IMG/VR virus record: IMGVR_UViG_3300013936_000004
DNA: 46,654 nt
Reading direction: 5' to 3' (one strand)
Source: a virus
Part shown: positions 17,754 through 46,654 of the stretch, one piece after another
Layout: each line of letters starts with the position of its first letter
Numbering within the stretch: the stretch's first letter is position 1
The notes under the pieces: model-generated
Database searches by the model: none
Seen by the model: only the letters and a program-made list of their open reading frames with translations
Told to the model about the DNA's origin: nothing
Translations under genes and position numbers: made by a program

Positions 17754-18190
17754 AAGTATTAATCAAAAAACTCTCTCCTTTGGCTCAAATCCCAAAGAAA
17801 ACCTACAAAGACGACTTCTGCTACGATGTCGTCGCTACATCCGAAGAAGAAATAGCACCAAATGTGTGGAAATACGGCATCGGTCTTGCGTTCCAAATCG
17901 TACGACCTCACCCAAGTATCTACAACCTCGCAATAGACTTCCGCCCTCGCTCCTCCGTATGGAAAACAGGGATGGTACTCTCTAACTGCGTCGGCACAAT
18001 AGACGAACCCTATCGCGGCGAAGTATCTGCCGTATTCTACCACCTCAATACCTCTCTGCCTCGATACAAAGTAGGCGATAAAATCGGCCAACTCAAACTC
18101 GGCATCACTACCCCTATCGAATGGCAAGAAACTGACACCCTCGACCAAACAGAACGCGGCGACAAAGGCTACGGCTCAACTGGCAAATAA
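17750..18190 (+). CDS. dut: dUTP diphosphatase (146 aa)
   Basis: dUTPase motifs are present: PRSS, GTIDEPYRGE, GDKIGQL and RGDKGYGSTG. The start has an ATGA overlap with rnh. Confidence 0.9.
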   Translation: MKVLIKKLSPLAQIPKKTYKDDFCYDVVATSEEEIAPNVWKYGIGLAFQIVRPHPSIYNLAIDFRPRSSVWKTGMVLSNCVGTIDEPYRGEVSAVFYHLNTSLPRYKVGDKIGQLKLGITTPIEWQETDTLDQTERGDKGYGSTGK

Positions 18191-18258
18191 GCCACTTATA
18201 ACAGAAAATTTGTATCTTGTACCGCCAAAGGTCTAAACCCCTCTAAAAACGCCTAAAA

Positions 18259-18405
18259 ATGACAGACAATAAAGTACTCGAATACTGCAAACGATGCCAC
18301 TTCCGCGAAAGACGCATCTGCAAAACAACTCACCAATTTGAACACTTCTGCCTGCAAGCAAACGAATTCCATAAATTTATATCTCAATGTCCCCTAAAAA
18401 AGTAA
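18259..18405 (+). CDS. Small Cys/His-rich protein (48 aa), not in the ORF track
   Basis: ATG ORF MTDNKVLEYCKRCHFRERRICKTTHQFEHFCLQANEFHKFISQCPLKK with CxxC...C...C spacing. Its 3' end overlaps the next ORF by 19 nt. Confidence 0.4.
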   Translation: MTDNKVLEYCKRCHFRERRICKTTHQFEHFCLQANEFHKFISQCPLKK

Positions 18406-18635
18406 TCAAACCCGTAATCACCGCAGTTAGAGATGCAAAAGGAAACAACATCCTCCGCAAACCTATCCTCAAACTGCACTACCACCCCGATACAATCAAA
18501 ACAAATATCGACGCGCTCATAGACAACGCGCCCGACCAACAAGCACTCTTCCTACTCGAAGATATAAAAACATTAACCGCGTGGGCACTCGCTCACCTAA
18601 ACCTCAAAAAACCAAATGAAACAAAAATTGACTAA
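18387..18635 (+). CDS. Hypothetical protein (82 aa)
   Basis: ATG ORF in the plus-strand island. Confidence 0.5.
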   Translation: MSPKKVIKPVITAVRDAKGNNILRKPILKLHYHPDTIKTNIDALIDNAPDQQALFLLEDIKTLTAWALAHLNLKKPNETKID

Positions 18636-18873
18636 ACTCGACCTCGACCAAGTACTCAACTACTTCCCCGTCTCTATCCTTTGGACTATTTGGCTCATCT
18701 CCTCCATAGTCCTACTCTGTACCCACACCATCCCCCTACTCGTGGCTCTACTACCACTGCTCATCCCCCTCTCCGTGGGTCTCTCTATCCTCCTCATTAT
18801 GGAACTCGCTAACCTAATTACCCTAATAACTAAACGCAAATCGGAAAAACTTAACGAAAAAGGGACTTCCTAA
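18616..18873 (+). CDS. Small membrane protein (85 aa)
   Basis: ATG ORF with two long hydrophobic segments (WTIWLISSIVLLCTHTIPLLVALLPLLIPLSVGLSILLIMELANLI). Confidence 0.55.
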   Translation: MKQKLTKLDLDQVLNYFPVSILWTIWLISSIVLLCTHTIPLLVALLPLLIPLSVGLSILLIMELANLITLITKRKSEKLNEKGTS

Positions 18874-18887
18874 CAGAAGCCCCCTTT

Positions 18888-20411
18888 TCAATTCCCCCTG
18901 CGAATGCCCCTCGGCCGAAATACTCCACCACTATACCCCCTCGTCGCATTCTTGCAATTCACCTCTTTCCCAATTATACTACTCAATACATCCGGTACAT
19001 CGTCATGCGCATTCGCCTTGAAGTGCCGCACAAATCCACTCAACTCCTTGTACGCCTTCGGCCACCTGTCCTTCCATCCCATAGGAAAAACTATCTGGCT
19101 CATTACCTGCCCGGCACTATTCAATATCCTCGCCTCCTTGTTCCCCTCACTGAAATACAACTCTATCTTCGCCCTCACTTTCTTCGCTATACTCAACCCG
19201 AACTGCTCCCCTCCTGCGTTCCGCTCACACCATACCACTTGACTGCCCTGCATGTTTATCTGCTGCGGTATCATTATACTCGTCTCCTCTACCCCCGCAT
19301 CACTCAAATAAATATCCGTCACTAATATGAATACCACTGGCTCAAACCTCCGCGTCTGCTCGTTGTATGTCGTGCTCTTGCTCCTATACACATCGTAACA
19401 TATACTACAAGTGTCATCCCCTCCCCTACCCGCTACATCAATGCAACACCCCTTGCGAATACATACACCATACTCGCTCTTGTCTACGTACTCCTTGAAC
19501 TCACCATACAACCTGCTGTCCTCACTGAACGGATGCCCTTGATACAAACACTCAAATACATACGGATCCGCCCTCTTCTTCATCATCAAACTCTCAATGC
19601 TACTATGGCTCGGAAAGATAGCCTCCCCCTCCTCCCTTGGGTCCAACTCCGTCGGCCCCCCTACCTTTATCGCAGGGAAATTGACATACGCCCATCTCTC
19701 CCCTAAATCCTCTAAATCTGACCACCTCTTCACCTCTACTACCCCCTCACTCGCTATTATCCGCCCTATCAAATCATCCTCGTTCCACCTCGTGAAGACC
19801 ATCAACTGCTGACCCCAATCCTGCAACCTACTCAATACTACACTCGTGTACCACCTCCACGCCTTGTTCCTCACTATCGGACTACTCGCCTCGTTGTAAT
19901 CCTTGTACATATCGTCCATTATCATTACATCCACCTTCCTACCCGTCAACGAACTCCCTCGCCCTACTACCCTCAATCCCCCTCCATCATACCCAACTAC
20001 CTGCGTCTCATCCGCATTGCAACGCCACTCCCGGTCTATCCTCCCATCACTTATCCTACTGCCCGGAAATACCGCCATGTACGCATCACTCCGCATCTTC
20101 CTCTGTACATCCTCGTTGAACGTCCTCGCTAAATCCGTGTTGTAACTCCCTATCACTATGTTCTTCTCTGGCTTTATCCCCATCAAAAAACTCGGCAACC
20201 CCCTACTACTGCACTCACTCTTCCCCGTCTGCGGACTTGCACTAATTATCAACTTCTTAATCCCACCATGCGCGAACTTGTCCACTATCCGGTACAAACT
20301 CCGATGATAACTCGTCATCTCTAAACTTGGGTTCAAATACCTCATATACACCCCGAAGTCCCTCTGCGCCATATACCGCACCATCAACTCCGGCGTCATC
20401 TCATCTATCAT
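18888..20411 (-). CDS. terL: Terminase large subunit (507 aa)
   Basis: N-terminal ATPase with a Walker A-like SPQTGKSE and a Walker B-like VDVMIMDDM. The C-terminal half is nuclease-like. ATGA coupling to the upstream small-subunit gene. Confidence 0.85.
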   Translation of the reverse strand: MIDEMTPELMVRYMAQRDFGVYMRYLNPSLEMTSYHRSLYRIVDKFAHGGIKKLIISASPQTGKSECSSRGLPSFLMGIKPEKNIVIGSYNTDLARTFNEDVQRKMRSDAYMAVFPGSRISDGRIDREWRCNADETQVVGYDGGGLRVVGRGSSLTGRKVDVMIMDDMYKDYNEASSPIVRNKAWRWYTSVVLSRLQDWGQQLMVFTRWNEDDLIGRIIASEGVVEVKRWSDLEDLGERWAYVNFPAIKVGGPTELDPREEGEAIFPSHSSIESLMMKKRADPYVFECLYQGHPFSEDSRLYGEFKEYVDKSEYGVCIRKGCCIDVAGRGGDDTCSICYDVYRSKSTTYNEQTRRFEPVVFILVTDIYLSDAGVEETSIMIPQQINMQGSQVVWCERNAGGEQFGLSIAKKVRAKIELYFSEGNKEARILNSAGQVMSQIVFPMGWKDRWPKAYKELSGFVRHFKANAHDDVPDVLSSIIGKEVNCKNATRGYSGGVFRPRGIRRGN

Positions 20412-20944
20412 TCTCCCCCCTCCCTGAACTTCGCATCCTGCATCTCCCCTACTATCCTCCTCATATCCTCCTCACTCAAATTCCCGAAATTGTACTGGTT
20501 GACTACCTGCTTCCGCTTGTCTACCCTCCCTATCGCCCCTATCAACCGCATCCGCTGCATCCCTATCCGCAACAACGTGTCCAAATACCGCGGGTCTCCA
20601 CTCTGCGGCCTGCTCGCAAAACACTCATCTATCTCATCCATACTCAACCCACGAGCCATTAACGCCGCATACTCCATAGGCTTTAATACCCGCTTGCTGC
20701 TCTCATAGTCCCTCTTCACTACCTCCTCTAAATTGTCTATCCGCATTATCTCCCGACTTACCATGTCATCTATCGCACCTATGTTCGCACGCTTCCACTC
20801 ATCTAACAAATCCCCTTTCAACTGACTTACAAAACTCCTCGCTACCCCAACCTCTCTCCCTATATCCGCATGTAACCCCCCATTCACTATCCCCTCCGCC
20901 ATCTCTATCCTCCTCTCTTCCGCTTCTTTACTCTTTTGTCCCAT
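20408..20944 (-). CDS. terS: Terminase small subunit candidate (178 aa from ATG at 20944)
   Basis: Located directly upstream of terL and coupled to it. It has an N-terminal HTH-like segment (HADIGREVGVARSFVSQLKGD). The track start at 20968 is a TTG. Confidence 0.65.
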   Translation of the reverse strand: MGQKSKEAEERRIEMAEGIVNGGLHADIGREVGVARSFVSQLKGDLLDEWKRANIGAIDDMVSREIMRIDNLEEVVKRDYESSKRVLKPMEYAALMARGLSMDEIDECFASRPQSGDPRYLDTLLRIGMQRMRLIGAIGRVDKRKQVVNQYNFGNLSEEDMRRIVGEMQDAKFREGGE

Positions 20945-20995
20945 TTTTCTTCCTCCTTTTTTTCCCAAAGTTACTACTTTTTCCCTAATTTCCCA

Positions 20996-21053
20996 TTTTA
21001 GTACCGCGCACTTTGTGGAGAACTTCCTTTCCTGTTTTTAGTACCGCGCATTT
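20996..21053. repeat. Two copies of ttttagtaccgcgca (20996-21010, 21036-21050) spaced 40 bp apart, just upstream of terS
   Basis: An exact 15-nt direct repeat read in the sequence. Confidence 0.8.
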
Positions 21054-21250
21054 TGGGCGGACTAACTCCCCCTCCCCCTCCCCTCTCATATAGGGGGGGT
21101 CTAAAATGCAGCCCCCTTTCATCCAAAACGGCTACCCTGCCGCGACTGGAACAAAAACCACGCTCTCCGACTACTTACATTTTTGCCCCTCCTGTCACGC
21201 CCCTATCAAACACAATAGTGCCCCTTTTTGTACACTCTTGCACCCAAACC

Positions 21251-21340
21251 ACCCAAAAATGCGACTTTTTGTAAGTACTTAAAAGTGTTTCCCCCGTGTT
21301 TTCGGAGACCAAACACCCAAAAATGCGACTTTTTGTAAGT
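21251..21340. repeat. Two copies of a 26-bp direct repeat acccaaaaatgcgactttttgtaagt (21251-21276, 21315-21340)
   Basis: Exact repeat with start positions 64 bp apart. Each copy contains the near-palindrome AAAAATGCGACTTTTT. Confidence 0.85.
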
Positions 21341-21494
21341 TTTATAGCCACAACTACGGCTCTTTGCACTGTTCTTTTTGTCAGCTTGCAGTGGGTGGAT
21401 TTGCGCCCCCCTTTCTGAGGGCTAAAAAGCAAAAAAACGGGCTTGCAGGCTTGTGGGAGCGTGATTAAGTAATTCGCGATAAACGAAGTAACCC

Positions 21495-21641
21495 CATACA
21501 AAAGAGCATCATACAAAAGAGCATCATACAAAAGAGCATCATACAAAAGACCCCCATACAAAAGAGCATCATACAAAAGAGCATCACGCAAAGAGCATCA
21601 AACAAAGAGCATCACACAAAAGAGCATCAAACAAAGAGCAT
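21495..21641. repeat. Iteron-like tandem array: ten abutting 14-15-bp units (consensus CATACAAAAGAGCAT)
   Basis: Units begin at 21495, 21510, 21525, 21540, 21555, 21570, 21585, 21599, 21613 and 21628. There are no spacers. An AT-rich tract (atatatatatataatt, ~21711-21727) follows. Confidence 0.9.
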
Positions 21642-21829
21642 CGCCACCCAATGAATAAGCATAAATAAGCAAAGAACATCGAACAGCCTCACCCAATAAT
21701 TGAAAGCCTCATATATATATATAATTACAAATGACCTATATTTGTTTTTTCAGCCCTTTATTCAAAGCCTTCATTATCAAAGCATTAAGAAAGCGGATGT
21801 AAAAAAGTTGAAAAAAAAGTTAGAATTTA

Positions 21830-21861
21830 TTTGCACAATTCAAATTTTTGTCATACCTTTG
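21830..21861 (+). promoter_or_regulatory. Bacteroidetes-type promoter P1 of the plus-strand accessory island
   Basis: TTTG (21830-21833), a 20-nt spacer, then TACCTTTG (21854-21861). The sequence tttgcacaattcaaatttttgtcatacctttg is near-identical to promoters at 22810, 30834 (-) and 42191 (-). Confidence 0.65.
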
Positions 21862-21923
21862 TTCTCAGATGAAGCAAACAAGCCCGCTTGCAAGTGGCTT
21901 TGAACAGTTAAAATTTTAATGTT

Positions 21924-22100
21924 ATGAAAAAAAATGGAAATGAAATGAGTTTATTTTTGTCCGATTTCGATAAAAGAAATGGATCACAACTTGAACAAGC
22001 CATCACAGAAGCCCACACCATTTATATAAATGGTAGTGGATTTTGGAGTTGTATCCGCATTTTGGCAGACTCCGGCAAATGCATAAAAGTTGTAAGATAG
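21924..22100 (+). CDS. Small hypothetical protein (58 aa), not in the ORF track
   Basis: ATG ORF MKKNGNEMSLFLSDFDKRNGSQLEQAITEAHTIYINGSGFWSCIRILADSGKCIKVVR, about 60 nt downstream of P1. Confidence 0.4.
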   Translation: MKKNGNEMSLFLSDFDKRNGSQLEQAITEAHTIYINGSGFWSCIRILADSGKCIKVVR

Positions 22101-22172
22101 TATTTTTCAACCCTTTAAGGTGGGCGGTAAAACCTTAAAAATCAATATTAATCATTTAAAAATCAAATAGTT

Positions 22173-22478
22173 ATGAAAACATTGAACAAAAACACAAAAA
22201 AAGCACAACAGTATATTAATGCCTATAACCATAGCACATTACACTACCTTGAAGACTGCTATAAGTCTTATAGCAATGATAAAAGAATTGCTTACAATAA
22301 ATGTAATCAAGAATTCTTAAAAGTCTATTGGGCTCATGTTTGGGAACACCCATACTCTATGGGGGTTAGAATACTTTCTTTTAATACCTTTGGTTTTACG
22401 TGTGCTTGGCACACTGAGGAAGGACTCCGAGTTGAAACTCCGGCTAATAGCTACCTAATACCAGATGTTACAGATTAA
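22173..22478 (+). CDS. Hypothetical protein (101 aa)
   Basis: ATG ORF followed by a strong terminator. Confidence 0.6.
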   Translation: MKTLNKNTKKAQQYINAYNHSTLHYLEDCYKSYSNDKRIAYNKCNQEFLKVYWAHVWEHPYSMGVRILSFNTFGFTCAWHTEEGLRVETPANSYLIPDVTD

Positions 22479-22486
22479 AAGCAAAG

Positions 22487-22516
22487 CCACTCATTGAATT
22501 GAGTGGTTTTTTTGTT
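22487..22516 (+). terminator. Rho-independent terminator
   Basis: 7-bp stem CCACTCA/TGAGTGG with a 6-nt loop, followed by TTTTTTTGTTTT. Confidence 0.75.
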
Positions 22517-22809
22517 TTAGCCCCCTTTTATTTTTTTCAACCCTTTGTGCCTTTTATGCTCTATGCCTTACAAGCCACAAAAACCCGTCTTAAATCGATT
22601 TATAAACCTTTGCGGTACTCTTATACCTTTTAGGCTTTTTATCCCTTTATTCGGGCGTTTTTGAGCCTTTGGACTTTTACCCCCCTCGTACATGTTATGC
22701 GTATGTGCTATTATGCTAGACGCTCAATGCAGTGGGTGAATTTTTACCCTCCATAAATTTTTAATTTGCAGTGACTTAAAATTAATGTGACAGAAATTTT
22801 TAGTTTTTT

Positions 22810-22841
22810 TTTGCTCAATTCAAATTTTTGTTATACTTTTG
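22810..22841 (+). promoter_or_regulatory. Bacteroidetes-type promoter P2, a duplicate of P1
   Basis: TTTG (22810-22813), a 20-nt spacer, then TACTTTTG (22834-22841). The sequence is tttgctcaattcaaatttttgttatacttttg. Confidence 0.65.
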
Positions 22842-22868
22842 TATCTAGTTAAAAAAAAATTAATAATT

Positions 22869-24071
22869 ATGATTAAATGTAATTCAAACCCACTCCGTAA
22901 GGAGTTAACAGCGCTGCAAATTGCAGCTGTTTCATATCTATCCAAAAAAAAGGTAGATACTGAAATAATAGGAGTGCCTGACCATCAAAGGTATGGCACA
23001 AGCAAGGAGCGTTTTGCATCCCACTGGACGGGCGCAAACGCTTTTATTTTTACCCATAAAGGCGTCGAATACAATATCACAATAGACGCCCGTGAATTTT
23101 CAACCCCAAATCAAAGCCGTGAATTTTCGAAAAAAAATCAAGAAATTAAAACAAATAATAATATGAACAACAATGATTTATTCGCTCCAATCGTAGAGCA
23201 TATTAAAAGTGCTTGTATCAATGACTTACAAGCACAGGTAAACGAATTAAAAAATAAAGTTACAGCTAATAATGCAACTACAATAAAAATTGAGGGGTAC
23301 AAAGATATAAAAGTAGAAGGTACTTTGCATCCAGCCTTTGCAGATATTTTGACCTACTTAAAAGGCGGTGAAAATGTATATCTATATGGTCCCGCTGGTG
23401 CAGGCAAAAACTATTTAGGTAGTCAGATTGCATCCGCCCTCAATGTGGATTTTTATTATCAAAATACTATTTTGACCAAATTTGACCTTTCAGGCTTTGT
23501 GGACGCAAAGGGCGAATATCAAGCAACCGAATTTTTCAACGTATGGACAAAAGGCGGGTTGTTTTTTGCGGATGAATTGGACAACTCGACGGCAGAAGCA
23601 ATCATTGCACTAAACGCAGCATTGGCAAACGGATATTTCACATTTCCACAAATTGGACGCGTGGAGAAAAATAGGAATTTCTACTGCATTGCAGCCGGCA
23701 ACACAAATGGACAGGGTGCAACCGATGAATATTGTGGCCGGTACCAAATGGACGAGAGTAGTAGGGATAGATTTATTTTCAAATTTATCGACTATGATGC
23801 GAATATTGAGCGCGCCCTTTGCAATAATGATACGGATATCATAGATTTTGTTTATGCTTTGCGTACCGCTTGCAAAGCGACTGGGATAAAATTGATTTGC
23901 GGGTATAGACTTATTTCTAGACTTTATAAATTTTCAAACCTCGATGCAAAAATAATTCTTAATGATATGTTACTCAAAGGATTGAGCGCGGATGCAATCA
24001 AAGAACTTGCATCTGCAATAGAGTGTAATAACAAATACGCACAAGCCCTTAAAGAAATAGCAAACGCTTAA
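22869..24071 (+). CDS. AAA+ ATPase, MoxR/CobS-like (AAA_5-type), ~400 aa from ATG at 22869
   Basis: Walker A is VYLYGPAGAGKN and Walker B is LFFADELD. Sensor-like IAAGNTNGQG and an arginine region SSRDRF are present. The ~150-aa N-terminal extension contains an Asn-rich low-complexity linker. The track start at 22839 is a TTG inside the promoter. Confidence 0.75.
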   Translation: MIKCNSNPLRKELTALQIAAVSYLSKKKVDTEIIGVPDHQRYGTSKERFASHWTGANAFIFTHKGVEYNITIDAREFSTPNQSREFSKKNQEIKTNNNMNNNDLFAPIVEHIKSACINDLQAQVNELKNKVTANNATTIKIEGYKDIKVEGTLHPAFADILTYLKGGENVYLYGPAGAGKNYLGSQIASALNVDFYYQNTILTKFDLSGFVDAKGEYQATEFFNVWTKGGLFFADELDNSTAEAIIALNAALANGYFTFPQIGRVEKNRNFYCIAAGNTNGQGATDEYCGRYQMDESSRDRFIFKFIDYDANIERALCNNDTDIIDFVYALRTACKATGIKLICGYRLISRLYKFSNLDAKIILNDMLLKGLSADAIKELASAIECNNKYAQALKEIANA

Positions 24072-24084
24072 TTTATAGAAAGTT

Positions 24085-24867
24085 ATGAAAGAATATAAAC
24101 ATAAAAACATTTATGCCATGTCTTTTACCTCAATACATGAGGTGAAAGACTATATTGCACACACTCCGAATAACAGCGTGTGCAATTATTCAAACTCACA
24201 AAGCAATTCACAAGTCAAATTTACTGGTACAAAATCACTTGCGGACGCTTTGGAACTTATGCAAAACGGATATGTAGACGGCCTCAAAGGGCTGCAAAGC
24301 AAAGATATAAAGGGCGTTCAACCAGCTGCAAAGCGTGTAAATACATTATATTCGGCACAAATTGGATTTATTCCTAATGTAGGGGCGGTTGTAACGGGTA
24401 ATCCTATTAATATGTTCAATATTAAACAGATAGCATACAAAAATACTAAAATTGTAAATATATTCTACAATTGCAGCGTGAGCGCCGGCACTTCTACCGA
24501 TGCAATTATAGCAAAAACGCGCGAACTTTTTAGCATCGTGCAAAGTCTTGAACTTAAAGGATATAGAGTGAATTTGCATGTCGGTGAAATAGCAAAGTTT
24601 AACGAAGTTCTATTGATTGATATTAAGATAAAAGATGCGGGCGAACACTTTGATGCGCTCCGGGCTGCATTTCCGCTTTTGCACCCGTCCTTTTTGCGTC
24701 GTATTTGCTTTGCAATCGACGAGCGACAAACGGGCGTAAAAATAGACAGTTCCTACGGGCGCTGTGTGCAGTCCGATACGGCAAAAACGCTTTTATTTAA
24801 AGTACTACCTAACTACATATATACAAGCTATTATACCGACTTTGAGAAAGAATTAAAGGGGTTATAA
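24085..24867 (+). CDS. Partner protein of the AAA+ ATPase (260 aa), possibly a degenerate vWA-like fold
   Basis: Starts 14 nt after the ATPase stop. The segment KIVNIFYNCSVSAGTS followed by a helix and a strand resembles a vWA beta1-MIDAS region with DxSxS changed to NxSxS. This is weak and inferred. Confidence 0.55.
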   Translation: MKEYKHKNIYAMSFTSIHEVKDYIAHTPNNSVCNYSNSQSNSQVKFTGTKSLADALELMQNGYVDGLKGLQSKDIKGVQPAAKRVNTLYSAQIGFIPNVGAVVTGNPINMFNIKQIAYKNTKIVNIFYNCSVSAGTSTDAIIAKTRELFSIVQSLELKGYRVNLHVGEIAKFNEVLLIDIKIKDAGEHFDALRAAFPLLHPSFLRRICFAIDERQTGVKIDSSYGRCVQSDTAKTLLFKVLPNYIYTSYYTDFEKELKGL

Positions 24868-25148
24868 TATTTAATCCCTTTTTCTTTTTCTCGTGCAATC
24901 GATTTTAAGGCACTTTTAAGGCACTTATACTACATTTATGGTATTGGACTACCTTTGCTCTTTTTACGAGCGTTTTAGAAGGGTTTTTGTGGGTCGGTAT
25001 GTTTGCAGTAGCACTGCAAGTTCTGACAGCTCCACGCGTGCACATGCACACACGCACCACACGCGCGCTCATACACCACCCCACCGCCGTGAATTTTTAG
25101 CCCGTGGATTTTTAAGAAGAAAGGGATACACACAATAGGATGCATCCC

Positions 25149-25178
25149 TCCGTGAATTTTCAGTCCGTGAATTTTCAG
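25149..25178 (+). repeat. Tandem 15-bp repeat tccgtgaattttcag x2, part of the GTGRATTT motif cluster
   Basis: Exact tandem copies at 25149-25163 and 25164-25178. The second copy overlaps the stop codon of the minus-strand 95-aa gene. Confidence 0.85.
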
Positions 25179-25462
25179 AATGGTAGGTCGTCTTTGCCCT
25201 CGTCTGCCTTTGCTATTTGTGCAGCTGGTGAATTTTTGACATGTTCAGGGTCGCTCCACTCGTCGGGCTTTAAGTCTGCAATATAGATAGCCTTTTTGGC
25301 TTCTTTATCCCATATCGTTATCGTATGCGTTGCCCCGAATTTGGACGGCTCCCGCAACTCGGATACACTGATATACACGCCTTTCAATCCTTGGTTGGTT
25401 GTTTGTACTAACTCTTTGGGAATACTACTTAATCTCAAAAATCCTTTTAATCTCTGTGACAT
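25175..25462 (-). CDS. Short protein (95 aa) ending in an SSB-type acidic tail (…EGKDDLPF); putative ssDNA-binding or SSB-tail-mimicking protein
   Basis: The C-terminal DDLPF matches the conserved SSB tip (D-D-D-[IL]-P-F). The body is beta-rich but shorter than a standard OB-fold SSB. Confidence 0.45.
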   Translation of the reverse strand: MSQRLKGFLRLSSIPKELVQTTNQGLKGVYISVSELREPSKFGATHTITIWDKEAKKAIYIADLKPDEWSDPEHVKNSPAAQIAKADEGKDDLPF

Positions 25463-45944: not shown

Positions 45945-46654
45945 TTAATTGATTAAATCTGCTTCGCAGTATTGTTTGATTTCTCCATTGCTGTTCTTTG
46001 CTACTATCCACTCATAGTCAGCACCAAGCGCAATACTACTACAATCTATCGTGAGTTTCTTCGAGATGTTTGTACCCTTTATACCCGACTTGATTGTTAG
46101 GTTCTGCAAAGGTGCACTCGATGATGGTTTCGTTGCTTGCTCATTAAACAAAAGTTGTACATATCGCACTCCATTGTCCACATGTATATATTGGATGTTA
46201 TCGAATTGAGCATCCACGATTGTTCCTTTTCCAAAGGAATTGAAGTTGCAGTTGTTTCCAAAGGAATTGTAGTTGCAGTCGTTTCCAAAGGAATTGAAGT
46301 TGCAGTTGTTTCCAAAGGAATTGGAGGAGCAGTAGTTTCCAAAGGAATTGGAGTCGCAGTCGTTTCCAAAGGAATTGAAGTAGAAGCCTTTTCCAAAGGA
46401 ATTGGAGTCGCAGTCGTTTCCAAAGGAATTGTTGTAGCAGTCGTTTCCAAAGGAATTGGAGTCGCAGTCGTTTCCAAAGGAATTGTAGTAGCATTTGTTT
46501 CCAAAGGAATTGTTGTAGCAGGCGTTTCCAAAGGAATTGTAGTTGCAGTTGTTTCCAAAGGAATTGTTGTAGCAGGCGTTTCCAAAGGAATTGGAGAAGC
46601 AGTAGTTTCCAAAGGAATTGGAGAAGCAGTTGTTTCCAAAGGAATTTTTGTTGC
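45945..46654 (-). CDS. 3' part of the junction-spanning fibre-like gene: NSFGNxCxx repeats plus a ~85-aa C-terminal domain (46593..46654 duplicates 1..62)
   Basis: The frame containing the 45945..46217 ORF stays open upstream through every repeat unit; I checked all 13 distinct variable 13-mers and found no stop. It is in phase with the 1..1005 ORF. The track shows only the GTG-initiated tail because this frame has no start codon within the repeats. Confidence 0.8.
   Translation of the reverse strand, partial: NKNSFGNNCFSNSFGNYCFSNSFGNACYNNSFGNNCNYNSFGNACYNNSFGNKCYYNSFGNDCDSNSFGNDCYNNSFGNDCDSNSFGKGFYFNSFGNDCDSNSFGNYCSSNSFGNNCNFNSFGNDCNYNSFGNNCNFNSFGKGTIVDAQFDNIQYIHVDNGVRYVQLLFNEQATKPSSSAPLQNLTIKSGIKGTNISKKLTIDCSSIALGADYEWIVAKNSNGEIKQYCEADLIN
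46227..46654 (-). repeat. Tandem array of 27-bp units (tttccaaaggaatt plus a 13-nt variable segment). About 16 units lie here and the array continues at 1..126, giving 18 NSFG units in the joined gene
   Basis: Units were read directly. The minus strand has no stop codon in any of its three frames. Confidence 0.9.
46593..46654. repeat. Terminal 62-nt sequence identical to 1..62
   Basis: See the feature at 1..62. Confidence 0.85.

Follow-up and report, generated by a model that had tools for sequence, protein, structure and literature searches.

What is encoded by a pair of adjacent genes that a Bacteroidales phage carries on the strand opposite to nearly all of its other genes, and that phages of ~99% identity do without? 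The question is raised by IMG/VR virus record IMGVR_UViG_3300013936_000004, a stretch of 46,654 nt that was analysed as a whole and is referred to below as the window. An exact terminal overlap of 62 nt (1-62 = 46593-46654) marks the contig as a circular assembly, giving a complete phage genome of 46,592 bp. The pair consists of a MoxR-class AAA+ ATPase and a 260-aa partner, and it lies in a + strand block (21830-24890) between - strand operons. [quoted passage not shown]

An earlier reading of the DNA, here called the original prediction, had suggested that the pair may be an uncharacterised module for host takeover, anti-defence or superinfection exclusion. It is no rare oddity: both proteins are already in catalogued families, and the pair belongs to a very large one among phages (DUF7192, phrog_1909 and phrog_249). 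New here are the structural evidence, from models, that DUF7192 may be a minimal adaptor related to NorD and CobT but without a MIDAS (an adhesion site that depends on metal ions), the near-obligate pairing of DUF7192 with a MoxR ATPase of the GKN type, and a clean natural presence/absence polymorphism. Among its carriers are therapeutic Kayviruses of Staphylococcus, P100-like phages of Listeria, mycobacteriophages and crAss-like phages of the gut.

The ATPase and its DUF7192 partner

The ATPase matches Pfam AAA_5 (E = 7.8e-9, 36.1 bits; cut-off 22) and phrog_249, a family labelled 'porphyrin biosynthesis' (E = 6e-46), and the GPAGAGKN and FFADELD motifs by which the original prediction had assigned it to the AAA_5 type were located. 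A search of NCBIfam returned no CobS model and only sub-threshold P-loop noise. The AlphaFold2 model has a mean predicted local distance difference test (pLDDT) score of 76, with values >85 across most of the core. It comprises a small alpha/beta N-domain (aa 12-71), a disordered linker rich in Asn (74-103) and, after a long helix (106-132), the AAA core (~150-400). The linker had been predicted, together with a unique N-terminal domain of ~150 aa; the folded part of this domain is ~60 aa, and it is not unique but conserved in the Bacteroidales homologues, lying outside the PHROG profile. All of the top 20 fold matches in the PDB are CbbQ or NorQ (E = 1e-11 to 7e-9), led by CbbQ (6l1q, E = 1.3e-11) and NorQ (entry 9qh4 and those related to it); the target-normalised template modelling (TM) scores are 0.60-0.75.

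Walker A (GPAGAGKN), Walker B, sensor 1 (AAGN(278)T), the arginine finger (SRDRF) and sensor 2 (GYR(347)) are invariant across 60 homologues. Conservation is strongest at aa 195-222, the predicted helix-2 insert, and at aa 271-302, which holds sensor 1 and the region of the pre-sensor-1 insert; this second insert is conserved but modelled with low confidence. According to published descriptions, the equivalent loops of NorQ and CobS line the pore and grip the partner.

The 260-aa partner matches Pfam DUF7192 (PF23822) over residues 5-236 with 105.2 bits (cut-off 27) and phrog_1909 with E = 1e-34. The family is very large, numbering 8,908 clusters of 50% identity when E <= 1e-3 is required and 2,333 when the limit is E <= 1e-30. 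Domain fusions of DUF7192 were sought and none was found, the 150 best representatives all being stand-alone proteins of 254-319 aa. The DUF7192 profile gave only chance matches to PDB sequences (E ~1), and in the literature library that was searched no paper mentions the family. Its invariant signature comprises K183, E213 and Y224 beside the HPSFLRR motif.

The AlphaFold2 model of the partner, built on an alignment of 103 sequences, has a pLDDT of 90.7 and a predicted TM score of 0.82. Its five best Foldseek matches in the PDB are chain G of NorQ-NorD complexes solved by cryo-electron microscopy in 2026 (E = 1.6e-5 to 1.5e-2, probability up to 1.0). The search output does not name chain G; we read it as the vWA chain of NorD, since it stands seventh beside six NorQ chains. 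vWF A1 domains are weaker matches and rank after NorD. Against BFVD, DUF7192 proteins came first (TM 0.55-0.72), followed by ~12 phage CobT-like/vWA proteins (E = 4e-5 to 1e-3). The fold searches of the ATPase and of its partner thus yield, as best solved matches, the two partners of one complex.

Within the model, the chain passes from a hairpin (84-91/110-117) with a short tip helix to a strand (123-129), a loop, a helix (138-157) and a second hairpin (161-183), and then into helices. This modelled arrangement agrees with a beta-hairpin followed by the N-terminal half of a vWA core. Published descriptions of NorD connect its finger to the MIDAS loop via one strand, and those of CobT place a short hydrophobic helix at the tip of its shaft. 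The order of hairpin, single strand and MIDAS-equivalent loop in the partner agrees with the published NorD layout, and the hairpin, a candidate finger, bears the most conserved motif of the family (GF.PNVP.YL.G.P.NM). The loop that follows carries NCSVS. The original prediction had seen here a possible degenerate vWA start in a tightly linked partner, and this was supported: NCSVS stands at the loop equivalent to DxSxS and no functional MIDAS is present. The DxSxS motif is absent from the partner and occurs, anywhere in the protein, in just 2 of the 103 family sequences. The relic pattern at the loop is [N/S/D]-x-[S/A/T]-x-[S/D/N], with N, S or D at its first position in 88/103 sequences and Asp in 10/103. 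Judged by these sequences, NCSVS is a degenerate relic, not a MIDAS.

Linkage of the two genes was assessed in 86 DUF7192 loci, comprising 80 IMG/VR viral loci plus annotated phage records and metagenome contigs. A co-directional ATPase homologue lies beside DUF7192 in 79 of them, mostly within 200 nt, downstream of DUF7192 in 69/79 and upstream in 10/79. Of the seven loci without it, six are contigs truncated right past the gene, and in the seventh (L033) the ATPase is mostly deleted; among informative loci the pair is adjacent in 79/80. It is also present in Staphylococcus Kayvirus GH15 (ORF047/046), in Enterococcus, Clostridium and Rhizobium phages, in Acinetobacter phage AM24, in Listeria Pecentumvirus (P100-like) and in mycobacteriophage JoeDirt (gp131/gp130). 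When the cassette was compared by blastn with 50,697 phage records there was no match, and relatives were found via the proteins. Adjacency kept in both orders in phages so far apart is a strong argument that the two proteins form a complex, physical or functional.

Genes next to the pair in other lineages include RuvC-like, Cas4-like and RecA-like genes, dCMP deaminase, helicase and primase; in the crAss-like phage cr10_1 the pair is flanked by helicase and primase genes. A total of 236 Staphylococcus phage records carry it, nearly all of them Kayvirus-like. JoeDirt (L097) has two DUF7192 paralogues, gp130 beside the ATPase gp131 and gp123 ~4 kb off. In three Bacteroidales phage contigs of 70-80 kb (L005-L007), the pair comes first in a long rightward operon of small open reading frames (ORFs) with an ArdA-like gene (weak Pfam match) and a serine recombinase.

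Several observations weigh against the assignment of the pair to a MoxR/vWA-type machine. Superposition of DUF7192 on NorD is poor (TM 0.26-0.32, with 0.2-0.33 across matches; root-mean-square deviation ~10-13 Å), so that the vWA relationship rests on the local 3Di score of Foldseek. No sequence profile ties DUF7192 to vWA, NorD or CobT (Pfam VWA gave no match at E <= 1). The weaker fold matches of the partner include PD-(D/E)XK nucleases, at a probability of ~0.15 or less versus 1.0 for NorD. The Asn in Walker A is unusual, and catalytic competence of the ATPase is assumed. The timing of expression, in turn, is deduced solely from promoter similarity.

Promoters and gene replacement at the locus

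The block is made up of two transcription units, P1-ORF58-ORF101-T1 (unit 1) and P2-ATPase-DUF7192-T2 (unit 2). The original prediction of an opposite-strand cassette with near-identical promoter copies at 21830 and 22810 was correct to within a few bases. The copies lie in a direct repeat of 43 nt (21820-21862 and 22800-22842, 86% identity), the core of which, TTTGC.CAATTCAAATTTTTGT.ATAC.TTTG, fits the pattern TTTG-N-TAnnTTTG. This pattern has 13 matches in the window versus 1.7 expected, and 0/100 shuffles reach 13. Six of the 13 form one family with a conserved spacer, namely P1, P2 and four members on the - strand (30865, 35810, 39182 and 42222) that all lie within the region of replication genes. 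The family is located upstream of the helicase, initiator and exonuclease genes. In Bacteroidetes the primary sigma factor, sigma-ABfr, has a -33 TTTG with a -7 TAnnTTTG as its consensus (PMC7366714), and by sequence P1 and P2 are promoters of this host type. What had been called the phage early promoter is therefore real, as a six-member family with members in the replication-gene region, but it is a host-type sigma-ABfr promoter. Metagenome-assembled genomes of Prevotella and Paludibacter are the source of the ATPase's genomic relatives, consistent with the host assignment from the Bacteroidetes-type promoter. Because the promoter is shared with replication genes, the cassette may be placed in the early or middle temporal class. 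Two papers on Kayvirus transcriptomes do not mention the ATPase.

The strong terminator that had been predicted for the block is real as a hairpin, but it ends unit 1 and not the whole block. The second terminator, T2, is weaker than T1 and is kept in relatives without the pair.

On both flanks, three genomes from IMG/VR (L009-L011) match the window at ~99% identity, and they lack exactly the variable segment listed in Table 1. Behind the same P2 and ahead of the same terminator, the pair is replaced by a 103-aa ORF, with inserts that differ in L009 and L011; Pfam and PHROG searches gave only a weak, sub-threshold DUF7832 match for this ORF. In all three genomes the last ~25 nt of the DUF7192 gene (EKELKGL-stop) and the terminator remain, non-coding, and a 61%-identical homologue (L100) has the same gene-end/terminator arrangement. 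More diverged relatives, L098 (TerL 79%) and L014/L015 (TerL 82%), retain TerS, a promoter-small ORF-terminator unit, a promoter-ATPase-DUF7192-terminator unit and orf95. Their identity to the window is 50-51% for the ATPase and 37-42% for DUF7192; the pair is thus more diverged than TerL, TerS, orf95 and PAPS reductase, and about as diverged as the methyltransferase (47%). Since the 3' remnant persists and diverged relatives hold the pair at the same locus, the slot seems to have been occupied by the pair ancestrally, and the close relatives appear to have replaced it.

The slot is hypervariable in L009-L011 (corresponding to 21860-24843), with alternative ORFs of 103 aa, 80 aa (or 98 aa when read from an ATG further upstream) and 46 aa. 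Small genes in L009 and L011 are shuffled between the P1 and P2 slots, and ORF58 is transferred, along with its leader, from P1 to P2. Such movement points to the repeated promoter core as a recombination joint, and the locus illustrates how repeated promoter copies could serve small-gene shuffling. L009 is a contig of 141,886 bp (IMGVR_UViG_3300013383_000017) with a near-identical phage copy inside; integration as a prophage, concatemer formation or mis-assembly may account for this.

Because relatives of ~99% identity are without it, the pair is dispensable in this phage lineage, auxiliary and not core. Like a phage moron, the cassette has its own promoter and terminator, stands on the opposite strand, differs in composition (GC 0.34-0.38 in the block versus 0.42 in the genome and 0.50 in the terminase genes) and is present or absent among near-identical genomes. 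It differs from morons in that the pair looks ancestral in its slot and that the promoter is from the phage's own early family, not foreign. The lineage amounts to a natural experiment, with isogenic phages with and without the pair that can be used to find the client and the fitness effect.

Proposed mechanism and rival explanations

In the mechanism that we propose, the ATPase would assemble as a hexameric ring and DUF7192 would be its dedicated, minimal vWA-like adaptor. The beta-hairpin finger of DUF7192 (~aa 84-117) would enter the pore of the ring and touch the helix-2 and pre-sensor-1 inserts, and ATP hydrolysis would twist or pull the adaptor together with its bound client. A relationship to NorD and CobT without MIDAS thus offers a concrete finger-in-pore model. 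Given the loss of the MIDAS, the client would be bound in another way than by NorD, CbbO or CobT. The primary sigma factor of the host would transcribe the pair from the promoter family that drives replication genes, and the pair would serve an early or middle function from a recombination-prone slot between promoter and terminator. The client may be a protein acting at the stage of DNA replication or host takeover, a leaning based on the location of the pair in replication/recombination modules of most other lineages. A more speculative and rather doubtful version is a phage-specific AAA+ remodeller in which the MIDAS has been swapped for a client surface centred on HPSFLRR, and which seizes or dismantles a host complex early in infection (a defence, replication or nucleoid factor). 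If true, this would account for carriage by thousands of phage lineages, for fast evolution and for swapping in Bacteroidales phages.

[quoted passage not shown] The likeness to NorQ/NorD extends to the hairpin of DUF7192, a candidate pore finger one strand away from the loop at the MIDAS position, and to the highly conserved pore-loop inserts of the ATPase. NorD (~640 aa) and CbbO (~770 aa), however, are far longer than DUF7192 (260 aa), which is without MIDAS, without the long N-terminal client-binding domain and without sequence-level homology to either. Unlike NorQ and CbbQ, the ATPase is phage-encoded and has an extra N-domain, a disordered linker, a helix and a GKN Walker A. The pairs of Kayvirus, Pecentumvirus, cluster-L mycobacteriophages and crAss-like Suoliviridae belong to the same PF23822/phrog_1909 and phrog_249 families, adjacent and co-directional. 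The Bacteroidales subgroup differs from these in having the ATPase before DUF7192, the minority order, and a lineage-specific ATPase N-domain; this phage further differs in carrying the pair as a swappable cassette and not within the replication module.

True CobS/CobT cobaltochelatase subunits, forming an auxiliary metabolic set that uses host CobN to raise cobalamin supply, are a very improbable identity for the pair. The idea draws on the label of phrog_249, on the many GenBank records that name the ATPase CobS, on the weak fold likeness of DUF7192 to phage CobT-like proteins, and on the wide occurrence of viral cobST clusters (PMC8651126), for which such a role has been proposed. The cobST genes of cyanophages, haloarchaeal viruses and jumbo phages likewise place a phage MoxR-like ATPase with the same PHROG label beside a vWA-type partner. 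Viral CobT, however, has ~600-860 aa, with a peptidase-like N-domain and a vWA with intact MIDAS, whereas DUF7192 is less than half as long, has neither and is a separate Pfam and PHROG family. Neither NCBIfam (E <= 0.1) nor Pfam (E <= 1) gave a CobS, CobT, CobT_C or VWA match, the M48C-type match of the CobT N-terminus is missing, and the ATPase fold is nearest to CbbQ and NorQ, with no CobS structure among its PDB matches. True CobST was thus rejected on profile and motif tests, and the 'porphyrin biosynthesis' or CobS label routinely given to the ATPase is probably wrong. Neither CobS/CobT homology with an intact MIDAS nor universal conservation as core genes, the two results named beforehand as speaking against an uncharacterised module, was found. 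Least credible is a McrBC-like NTP-dependent nuclease, with the AAA_5 ATPase as McrB and DUF7192 as McrC (a finger plus PD-(D/E)XK). McrB is likewise AAA_5, McrC likewise binds with a finger in the pore, and the DUF7192 model has PD-(D/E)XK matches, but these have the low probability given above. Moreover, there is no conserved D...(D/E)xK, since K183 alone is invariant and is preceded by hydrophobic or variable residues, and McrB is not in the 50 best fold matches of the ATPase; this candidate was rejected by the motif test.

Two further rivals remain. In anti-defence or host takeover, the pair would remodel or inactivate a host defence, replication or transcription factor, or exclude competing phages. 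Its placement in a hypervariable slot, with its own promoter and terminator, lower GC and small genes in its stead in ~99%-identical relatives, would suit such a function, as would its faster divergence than TerL, TerS and PAPS reductase in syntenic relatives, and the ArdA-like gene and many small ORFs in the operon that it heads in the 70-80 kb contigs. PADLOC was negative, however, no recognisable effector or anti-defence domain was found, and most other lineages keep the pair stably in replication modules, the Staphylococcus records among them, so that we hold this account to be possible but unlikely. The lack of an effector gene in the unit is as originally predicted. The suggested link to NTP-dependent conflict systems did not stand up, as the four cassette proteins have no PADLOC match and only two genes, with neither an effector nor a VMAP-type third component, lie between the promoter and terminator of unit 2. 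A chaperone of virion assembly has a precedent in the MoxR-vWA pair of Acidianus two-tailed virus, reported to act in tail development, and has been proposed for jumbo phages (PMC7824862); the cassette also adjoins the terminase genes. It is nevertheless improbable, given that transcription is divergent from the packaging/structural operon and uses the promoter family of replication genes, that relatives with structural genes of ~99% identity dispense with the pair, and that elsewhere it is embedded in replication modules. Overall, the MoxR/vWA-type remodelling machine with an early function remains the preferred reading.

Feature coordinates and surrounding sequence

The coordinates of the features are collected in Table 1. 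TTG 22839 was rejected as the start of the ATPase, and the start is likely ATG 22869, because the TTG falls within the promoter.

Table 1. Features of the + strand block, in window positions.
Feature	Position	Strand	Remarks
Promoter P1	21830..21861	+	Bacteroidetes-type: -33 TTTG, -7 TACCTTTG; one of six family members
Predicted 5' leader, unit 1	21862..21923	+	Putative transcription start
ORF58, small gene	21924..22100	+	Identical protein behind P2 in L009 and L011; 41% homologue in L013
ORF101, small gene	22173..22478	+	98% conserved in L009, L010; 38% homologue in L015; 46-aa ORF instead in L011
Terminator T1 (intrinsic)	22483..22517	+	Hairpin 22483-22510 plus T-run; -17.6 kcal/mol, z = -5.0; ends unit 1
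Promoter P2	22810..22841	+	TTTG ... TACTTTTG; homology to pair-less relatives stops 1-12 nt past -7 box
Variable segment	22843..24842	+	In L010 ~385 nt instead, with 103-aa ORF; inserts of L009, L011 differ
MoxR-class AAA+ ATPase, 400 aa	22869..24071	+	Pfam, PHROG, model and fold matches
Walker A GPAGAGKN, aa 174-181	23388..23411	+	Asn in place of usual Thr/Ser in 72/76 family members
Predicted helix-2 insert, pore loop	23460..23528	+	Conservation and model secondary structure; analogy with NorQ, CobS
Walker B LFFADELD, aa 231-238	23559..23582	+	D235, E236 invariant
DUF7192 protein, 260 aa, putative MIDAS-less vWA-like adaptor	24085..24867	+	Starts 14 nt past ATPase stop
Candidate finger, aa 84-117	24334..24435	+	Beta-hairpin with short tip helix; putative, by analogy with NorD finger and CobT shaft
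NCSVS, aa 129-133	24469..24483	+	Loop past first core beta-strand; positional equivalent of MIDAS DxSxS; degenerate
HPSFLRR family signature, aa 200-206	24682..24702	+	P201, R205, R206 invariant
Terminator T2	24855..24890	+	Hairpin 24855-24881; -11.5 kcal/mol, z = -3.4; loop holds DUF7192 stop codon

Left of the block, the - strand carries portal, TerL (18888-20411) and TerS (20408-20968). To its right, from 25175 on, only - strand genes are found, among them a methyltransferase, a PAPS-reductase-like gene, a DnaB-like helicase, a replication initiator and an exonuclease. GC skew flips sign within the block. The terminase region (18000-21000) has a GC of ~0.50 and a skew of -0.42 to -0.57, more strongly negative than that of the genome remainder. 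Pfam and PHROG searches were uninformative for the N-domain of the ATPase, for ORF58 and ORF101, and for the small - strand ORFs nearby. An Rfam scan of 20900-25300 gave a sub-threshold Phe-leader, overlapping terminator T1, as its sole match.

Several repeats surround the block. A 30-nt repeat (AACCACCCAAAAATGCGACTTTTTGTAAGT) occurs at 21247-21276 and 21311-21340 (97% identical), with a third, degenerate copy at 21210; it is non-coding and lies upstream of TerS. Between TerS and P1 lies a tandem array (21468-21640) in which a 15-nt unit (CATACAAAAGAGCAT and variants) is repeated ~8-10 times; its possible identities are iterons, an element of pac or origin type, and an array that binds protein. 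Directly past the cassette, in a convergent intergenic region (25087-25175), there are four copies of the 11-mer CCGTGAATTTT, as two pairs 15 nt apart. The same 11-mer is also found at 23090 and 23117, within the ATPase linker, where it codes for REFS; with one mismatch allowed it has 7 matches versus 1.2 expected, and it may be an operator or iteron. An unusual CA/GC-rich tract (CACGCGTGCACATGCACACACGCACCACACGCGCGCTCATACACCACCCCACC) at 25030-25090 separates the cassette terminator from the GTGAATTTT repeats.

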